DNA of 58,683 bases, counting the filler, from Sluysia triapertura (lineage: Eukaryota): assembly GCA_046118255.1 (NCBI GenBank). It is 4 parts of 4 records of this genome, joined end to end, with 100 filler letters (N's around TTAATTAATTAA, not from the genome) between each part and the next. Parts side by side here need not be neighbours in the genome. Positions count along the whole stretch, not along the records: positions 33,329 to 45,159 come from JBJNIA010138060.1; 3 more parts are not named here. One strand, written 5' to 3'. Below the pieces are notes generated by a model. It saw only the letters and a program-made list of their open reading frames with translations, had not been told where the DNA came from and searched no databases. A program made the position numbers and the translations under genes. Positions 34,449 to 35,655 of the stretch are shown piece by piece; the first letter of the stretch is position 1, and each line of letters starts with the position of its first letter.

Positions 34449-35655
34449 ATGTTAAAAAATCGTAAAGATCATTTAATTGAAGCATATAATTTAATAAAAG
34501 TTGTTAATTATCTGAACAATTTGAACGGTCTAAATAATGAAATAGAACTAAGCACTTCTTGTAACCATTTGTTGTCTCAATACAATGAAATAAAATCTTC
34601 AAATTATCAAGTCTTTCATCCATATCCAAGATTAAAATTATTACATTATCAATCTTATTTTATGATGTTCATATTCTCTAAACCATGTTATGCTCTTGAT
34701 ATATGCGGATCTCCAACTCAAATTGAACCGAATGCAAATAATTCATTCCTTAGTTTTTTAGATCTATCTCCAATGCCGGATATATATTACGATCAACACT
34801 CATCATCAAGATTTCAAGAGTCAGAAGATTTTGTGTTCTTCATCAAATGTTGTTCGATGTGTACAATCCATAAACCAGTTTACAAAAGATGCGGACATTT
34901 GCATTAAAATGCTTAAGACGTATCACATTCTTGTGGTTGAATTTTGTGTAATGTTTAAAGAAGTCAATAAATTACAATTTAATTCTGAATTGGTAATTAA
35001 AAGTTATATCATACCTTATCCAGCAAGTGTTCTTATTTACCTCAACGAAGGTATGTGTGTAAAGATGATGCTACAGATGACAGATACAAAACTATCAGCA
35101 TAAATACATTATATCCTTATTCATTTGTATTCAGTGCATCTCTTAGTTAATTTCAACAGATTATTCAGGCACTACAATCATGCTGTAAACAATAAAATTT
35201 CTTCAATAATCTAACCTATGATCGGCCTTCTTTCAAGCCAACAAAATCATGTTTTATTCCAAACAGGACATTGTCCATTTGAATCAGATGGTCTAGGCCA
35301 ATGCATCAAATGAGGATTATCCTGCAGATATTTCCATAACATTATATCGAAGCTTCAGCTGATATTTTTTACAAGCATGCAGAACGACTAAATGAGTTAA
35401 TGTTGGACAATCGAAATACCAATTATGTGCAAAATTTATCAACCAATCACTTCAAAAGAAGATGTTCAATCCAATAATTTTACAGACAATTTAGTGTTTA
35501 AAGTAAATTTTATATTTTACATTCAATATTTATTTGACTGTTACATTTTCAAATACAGAATCACACAGCCGGAGAAAGTCGCCAATATCCGAAATGCATA
35601 TGTTCAATTCAACAGCCTGGATAATTTTACAAACTTAATATTAATAATATCTTAG
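34449..35655 (+). pseudogene. Cargo gene A, unknown protein, frameshifted; intron 35503-35558
   Basis: ORFs 34449-34907, 34831-35103 and later frames; colinear protein similarity to cargo gene B (LNE/LNQ, NKISS, FxxHxxRxNxL..QNxS). Confidence 0.6.

Follow-up and report, generated by a model that had tools for sequence, protein, structure and literature searches.

Two decayed gene copies of Sluysia triapertura and a probable CFAP47-zinc finger chimera in a Helitron-like element

The genome of Sluysia triapertura (GCA_046118255.1) holds two broken genes, here called A (34449..35655, + strand) and B (41682..42792, + strand), which raise the question of whether they descend from one gene, where the parts of that gene came from and whether it was kept as a working protein inside a mobile element. 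Both lie in one analysed stretch of 58,683 nucleotides (the window), which joins four parts of the genome with filler between them and consists of AT-rich animal DNA with 18-36% GC per kb; an assembly gap (33229-33328) lies just upstream of A. With a probability of about 0.6, A and B are likely old sister versions of a chimeric gene that a likely Helitron-type element assembled through captures in series. With similar confidence, B can be read as a fragment of the start of CFAP47 joined to a partial zinc finger, which is complete and of the Unkempt type in A.

Several other features are found in the window. Pieces of a frizzled-family host gene with four exon frames lie at 15450-27400 (- strand), and a 376-codon Ser/Thr/Asn-rich frame at 43804-44934 (+), with a hydrophobic stretch near its start and no Pfam match above the cut-off, is probably a host exon. 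A decayed RING-like ORF followed by B-box-like Cys/His residues (50430-50840, +) is TRIM-like by eye, its Pfam RING match (E 0.035) being below the cut-off. The tRNA-like head of a probable SINE was found at 22796-22867 (-; Rfam tRNA, 49 bits), with related stretches at 16904-17048 and 19916-20031, and the Rfam search of 22000-46000 gave one tRNA-like match only. A degenerate tandem array of 51-54-nt units (8294-8785) and a two-copy repeat (1207-1896 and 55162-55833; 74% over about 700 nt) are also present.

The window copies of A and B are both broken. A begins with an open N-terminal frame of 152 codons (34449-34904) and then carries several frameshifts and stops (35101, 35212 and 35311), and its coding path needs frame changes and stop read-through. 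The frame of B changes three times and meets a stop soon after the start of the last exon, and B retains an open frame of 165 codons that was equalled in 0 of 2000 shuffles. In some other B copies, represented by contigs of run X1, one-base insertions mend the frame at two of the three breaks. One insertion behind 41715 occurs in four contigs, a minority of the covering depth, and another behind 42432 (three contigs) or 42434 (two contigs) links the CFAP47 frame of B with its finger frame, also in a minority of the covering depth (53/147). A small intron just before a short last exon, reported for both genes by the sequence-only reading that preceded this analysis, was recovered as a putative GT..AG intron of 56 nt in A (35503..35558, +) and of 64 nt in B (42654..42717, +), each placed after a Lys codon; the acceptor of the B intron is a cleaner TTTTTAG in other copies.

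The same reading had described A and B as distant homologues whose translations align colinearly and almost without gaps. The order was retained, with the four quoted peptides at 35026, 35134, 35208 and 35367 in A and at 42103, 42217, 42298 and 42504 in B (+ strand). However, the spacings of the blocks (108/74/159 nt in A, 114/81/206 nt in B) require a gap of about 47 nt at the last step, and A can be followed only with frame changes and stop read-through. The identities of the four pairs were 2/11, 6/25, 3/24 and 8/25, the last exactly as had been counted. For the third quoted block of A, frame 2 is probably the wrong coding frame, and frame 0 of the adjoining stretch leads into the zinc finger.

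When A (34400-35700) and B (41550-42830) were compared by frameshift-aware alignment, the best block joined 35299..35447 (+), which holds the finger end and the following segment of A, with 42435..42584 (+) of B (17/50 identical, score 64). Shuffles scored 38.8 ± 4.0, and the observed score was reached by 0/300 dinucleotide shuffles, by 1/300 triplet shuffles and, under five other parameter sets, by 0/120 shuffles each; the top score among 274 background tiles was 54. The best gap-free diagonal of 27 codons was equalled by 3/200 shuffles. By the shuffle control that had been proposed for it, homology thus holds for the C-terminal block (0/300) but not for quoted blocks 1-3 in the middle part, where 41/300 and 70/300 shuffles did as well. 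Extension anchored on the block reached into the middle at the two laxest of six settings (54/1000 and 73/1000), with nothing in the other four. The N-termini (192/300 and 235/300, the first 10 residues of B being in the wrong frame there) and the last exons (4/6 residues; 67/300 and 34/300) were not significant either. Only the C-terminal A-B block is solid.

The absence of DNA similarity between A and B, also part of the earlier description, applies to the coding parts and fails upstream, where a non-coding block at 33650..33905 (+) is 74% identical over 258 columns to a block in the element of B (40635..40870, +). A second gene in this block is ruled out by missing codon periodicity and by stops on both strands. 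The block is C-rich, G-poor and better conserved than the cargo genes, and since flanking non-coding DNA is more alike than the genes, mosaic exchange or a separate constraint would be needed. Paired TTGGACG(C/T)CCA motifs, a putative promoter, lie upstream of A (34279..34340, +), and the same pair is found upstream of B (41401..41471, +). Counted from the second Cys of the finger in A and B, the promoter motif lies at -1023/-1037, the intron donor at +201/+216 and the stop at +353/+354. This geometry and the common upstream DNA suggest descent of the whole cassette, beyond the C-terminal block. Common descent of A and B, together with protein-level constraint, is supported by the one significant block, the saturated third positions described below, the 165-codon frame of B and the matching cassette geometry.

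The protein family had been taken as unrecognised, which no longer holds, as the core of B appears to be derived from CFAP47 and the block shared with A starts with an Unkempt-type finger. The CFAP47-derived part of B (41947..42381, +) covers the Ig-like domain ASH1 and the greater part of ASH2 (about residues 10-160 of CFAP47), and its 145 codons, about 150 aligned residues, run without stop, frameshift or intron. An HMM made from three CFAP47 orthologues alone matched this core at E 1.3e-18, the runner-up among 1692 window peptides being at E 2.2. Among the same peptides, none from A scored better than E 15, and a CFAP47-like path through A (34698-34909) was non-significant. B is 29-34% identical to the orthologues, which are 44-46% identical to each other, and keeps motif residues such as GL, DR, P, VD, N and G. 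The match stops near residue 160, and the full chain of about 20 ASH domains and a CH domain is not present. The C-part of B was considered as the third CFAP47 domain and rejected, the comparison with residues 170-345 being not significant (268/500).

Database searches pointed in the same direction. Against 1.84 billion representative proteins, the B core gave four matches, and both non-repetitive ones were CFAP47-like ASH-domain proteins, one from a snail and one from an eel; the snail protein and a longer relative matched mouse CFAP47 at 7e-26 and 2e-238. The two other matches were repetitive coiled-coil proteins with about 23 residues aligned and were set aside as chance. CFAP47 was first among PDB sequences for B, weakly (E 0.09), and a protein search using a profile of B and CFAP47 gave 3/1668, all CFAP47-like or unnamed. 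When longer proteins were searched by words for relatives of B, 0/412 candidates matched, the ESM Atlas had no usable match for the B core or the A N-terminus, and metagenome and viral contigs had none for the protein or for the element end motif. In the Pfam scan, B itself had no ASH match, and PSI_integrin and tubulin-binding matches under the cut-off were discarded. Predicted structure models reached a pLDDT of 34 and 31 only, too poor to search.

The isoforms of snail CFAP47 are set apart by an insert of 13 residues near residue 50, which likely marks a splice site. Since B reads straight through this site, it is possible that B was taken from a spliced copy of CFAP47. As a caveat to the CFAP47-derived reading, the host's own CFAP47 could be fast-evolving. 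In the excerpted text of PMC12297659, mouse CFAP47 is described as a central-apparatus protein with 20 ASH domains, of which ASH1 binds the C1 microtubule, and knockout mice as having poorly motile sperm.

The complete finger is found in A (35254..35337, +). It has the pattern C-x9-C-x6-C-x3-H, counted from the Cys at 35272, and is interrupted by a TGA at 35311. With X at the stop, it matched Pfam zf-CCCH_UNK (PF25427) at E 1.6e-6 and 28.4 bits, below the gathering cut-off of 31.1, and as the fragment was chosen by eye, multiplication by about 1700 window peptides brings E to about 0.003. It also aligned without gaps to mouse Unkempt (5elh_A 95-123; 12/29 identical, E 0.0084). The finger of B has three of the four ligands (C-x6-C-x3-H at 42438-42473) and lacks the first Cys, and it has possibly lost zinc binding; searched alone, it had no CCCH match in Pfam and resembled another CCCH protein weakly, at E 0.65. 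The chimera is seen in B alone, with the identity of its finger taken from the A-B block. On the + strand of the window, a single broad CCCH pattern was found, and the two clusters of three fingers of Unkempt were not found. No donor was detected for the segment after the finger. Fingers 1-3 of Unkempt jointly bind A/U-rich RNA, and weakly, according to excerpts of PMC12136788; a lone Unkempt finger should bind RNA less than three.

The front of A contains a half-RING-like Cys/His cluster (34851..34904, +), a candidate only, for which the RING of RNF125 gave E 1.5 and Pfam no match; its pattern, defined post hoc, occurred in 0/1000 shuffles. Two long open frames of A overlap at 34762-34904, one reading as the half RING and the other weakly as CFAP47.

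B is enclosed by a 3.2 kb element, E3 (39835..43070, +), with oriented ends and a 3' palindrome followed by CTAA. Three short cargo-free relatives share such ends: E1 (31389..32198, +), whose two ends are as in E3, E2 (36958..37993, +) and E4 (43090..43815, -), which stands tail to tail with E3. These four end pairs are joined by a lone 3' end near 25527. Terminal inverted repeats are absent, the ends matching only in A/T runs in 4/4 elements. The 5' starts are A|TC in E1 and E2 and T|TC in E4, with no TC in E3; the 3' ends are CTAA or CTAG in 5/5, with T next in 2/5. The 3' palindrome occurs at 5/5 ends and abuts CTAR, with weak folds (-0.7 to -3.0 kcal/mol), and in E0 and E1 a YYAG|T lies 10 nt beyond the palindrome-CTAR end; in canonical Helitrons, the palindrome precedes the 3' end by about 11 nt (excerpts of PMC4778049). 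As for target-site duplications, the flanks match over at most 4-5 nt in E1, E2 and E4, and over 11 nt within a TAT repeat in E3. No Rep/helicase (RepHel) gene was found among the 19 window pieces scanned, which cover part of the ORFs. Canonical Helitrons have a 5' TC next to a target A, a 3' CTRR with T behind it and no target-site duplication, and the termini described here agree with these hallmarks in part. The carrier is Helitron-like and probably a Helitron. Carriage by an element is shown for B only; the element ends of A were not found in the window, and the 5' one would have to lie within the gap at 33229-33328 or on its far side.

Further observations concern these elements. E3 and E4 are about 20 nt apart and both lie beside TAT microsatellites (39766-39834, 43071-43089 and 43818-43864), and a target preference is possible. 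The short elements contain arrays resembling heat-shock elements, with a CCAAT-like box, at a distance of about 100-500 nt from their 3' ends (25401-25428, 32067-32084 and 37463-37490); heat-shock-element arrays are described for Caenorhabditis Helitrons in excerpts of PMC6927752. A conserved internal motif lies about 330-390 nt from the element 5' ends (31773, 37286 and 43432 on the - strand), with a related stretch near 40170.

When contigs of run X1 were aligned to 41145-43790, 2436 matched, 143 at 99% or above, 268 at 95-99%, 756 at 90-95% and 1269 below 90%. On the B region the depth was up to 77 at one site, and 47 contigs continued unlike the window behind 43070. Run X1 possibly comes from the same sample as the window, and the contigs therefore indicate repetition rather than independent occurrence; nor do they amount to a copy count. 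From these matches and the divergence behind 43070, B belongs to an old, many-membered family that ends at the palindrome. A jump of summed depth from 87 to 1642 near the start codon of B was discarded as evidence, because contig depth cannot rank gene parts.

Selection was examined in 41 gap-free codons of the A-B block, where nucleotide identity by codon position was 21/28/12. Third-position identity equals chance (0.29 vs 0.28), and pS was 0.92 with pN at 0.40. The best shuffled diagonals were also lower at the third position (11.8/14.6/10.0 of 27), and part of the codon pattern is therefore selection bias. With this caveat, the saturation of synonymous sites fits long protein-level constraint, and the gene was likely kept long as a working protein. 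Within B, 7 of 17 changes between the window and the majority were synonymous against 3.8 expected, a weak excess taken from 17 of 40 rows out of 377. The earlier inference of protein-level selection inside the element is thus upheld for the constraint, but extends to element carriage in B only.

Several other explanations have to be weighed against serial capture of a chimeric gene. It is possible, although we think it unlikely, that A and B share only a 3' module (finger, following segment, intron and last exon) and the upstream DNA, the front of A being another capture, perhaps a RING. This would account for the lack of a CFAP47 signal in A, for the unrelated N-termini and for the half-RING-like cluster inside the open frame of A, but the equal cassette length, the borderline colinear matches in the middle and the non-significant CFAP47-like path at 34698-34909 speak for a longer common gene, and the RING candidate has no HMM support. 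This reading is partly compatible with the preferred one. We are more doubtful that a domesticated or host-born gene is under selection for the host while the repeat does no more than multiply it, with A and B among the resulting pseudogenes. A gene of this kind would have the introns, paired promoter motifs and long open frame seen here, both window copies are broken, and the coding parts are older than the common flanking block; however, B is flanked by the same ends that bound the three short elements without cargo, its relatives cease matching at the 3' end, and protein searches of limited sensitivity yielded no fusion of this kind.

A distinctly improbable reading is that A and B are neutral passengers, functionless fragments in which a residue of the constraint on the donor genes, together with alignment bias, imitates selection. 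Most captures by Helitrons decay, with 4/36 copies intact in one family (excerpts of PMC4224331), both copies here are broken, and some of the codon pattern also arises in shuffled alignments. The persistence of 165 codons without a stop, at an identity to the orthologues of about 30%, argues against it, as do the third positions at chance with finger ligands kept and a conserved block that reaches beyond the finger with no detected donor. The least probable of these alternatives is an element-encoded anti-silencing factor, a suggestion of the sequence-only reading that found no support; VANC of the Arabidopsis VANDAL elements would be its model. An RNA-binding-type finger could act on element transcripts, and the cargo was retained, but the domain scan found no chromatin or DNA-binding domain, and most of what can be recognised is a structural domain from a protein of cilia. 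The preferred chimera has its own difficulties: A has no significant CFAP47 match and is borderline against B in the middle, so that the chimera is seen in B alone; the finger scores below the Pfam cut-off; the palindrome directly adjoins CTAR, where a distance of about 11 nt would be canonical, and E3 has no 5' TC and an 11-bp flank match; no Rep/helicase gene was found among the scanned window pieces, and the ends of the A element were not found.

Under serial capture, a rolling-circle element would have taken up the 5' coding part of CFAP47, possibly from a spliced copy, and a single Unkempt finger, and the two would have been fused behind an internal promoter. Source copies would have been translated under purifying selection for long enough to saturate the synonymous sites between A and B, while non-autonomous spread would have scattered copies that then decayed. 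Tentatively, and with more doubt than belief, the intact protein can be imagined as a germline microtubule-to-RNA adaptor, with its ASH domains on axonemal or centrosomal microtubules and its finger weakly on A/U-rich RNA. A role of the cargo in transmission, with a truncated sperm-flagellum protein as the handle, is speculation. In that very improbable case, a selfish element family would encode a shortened CFAP47, which would compete for the site on the C1 microtubule in the central pair of sperm and be restricted or targeted by the RNA-binding finger. It would distort sperm motility to the advantage of element carriers, and its old subfamilies would be the outcome of diversification; the models for this idea are truncated-duplicate drivers in flies and the Maverick cargo of nematodes.

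Captured Helitron pieces usually decay, and a CFAP47-finger fusion that persisted to synonymous saturation in two element lineages would, if true, be a clear instance of a gene that originated within an animal repeat and was maintained there. The fusion also makes it possible to test whether selection on such cargo benefits the host or the element. In the titles and abstract openings of a partial collection of literature on CFAP47 with transposons and on Helitron capture of CCCH genes, nothing described such a fusion.

Compared with known systems, this locus has both common and separate features. VANC proteins, as given in excerpts of PMC5735166, are likewise encoded by an accessory gene in a DNA transposon; a VANC-like factor would have to bind non-coding motifs of its own element and remove silencing, and no sequence or domain link to VANC was found, and the donors here would be ciliary and RNA-binding. 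Mavericks of nematodes also carry host-derived cargo families, although they are another element class, and the toxin-antidote function shown there in the excerpted text (PMC10680173) has nothing comparable in the A/B element. Bat Helitrons, including Helraiser, are closer, sharing oriented ends without terminal inverted repeats, a 3' palindrome, capture of 5' gene parts, serial capture and decay (excerpts of PMC4224331 and PMC4778049); PMC4224331 describes captures in series, a preference for 5' gene parts, uptake of retrogenes and, at times, selection on the captured pieces. In contrast to A and B, whose lineages are at synonymous saturation, donors of bat captures readily align to host genes according to the same excerpts. 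The 3' spacing here is also non-canonical, and no transposase was seen among the scanned window pieces. The third CCCH finger of Unkempt (PF25427; PDB 5ELH) has the x9/x6/x3 spacing of the finger in A, but Unkempt has two clusters of three, whereas there is one finger here, with a stop in A and the first Cys lost in B. CFAP47 itself aligns with B (41947-42381) over residues about 10-160, but only about 5% of its length is represented, with a 5-residue linker deletion, in a multi-copy gene whose N- and C-termini are foreign to it.
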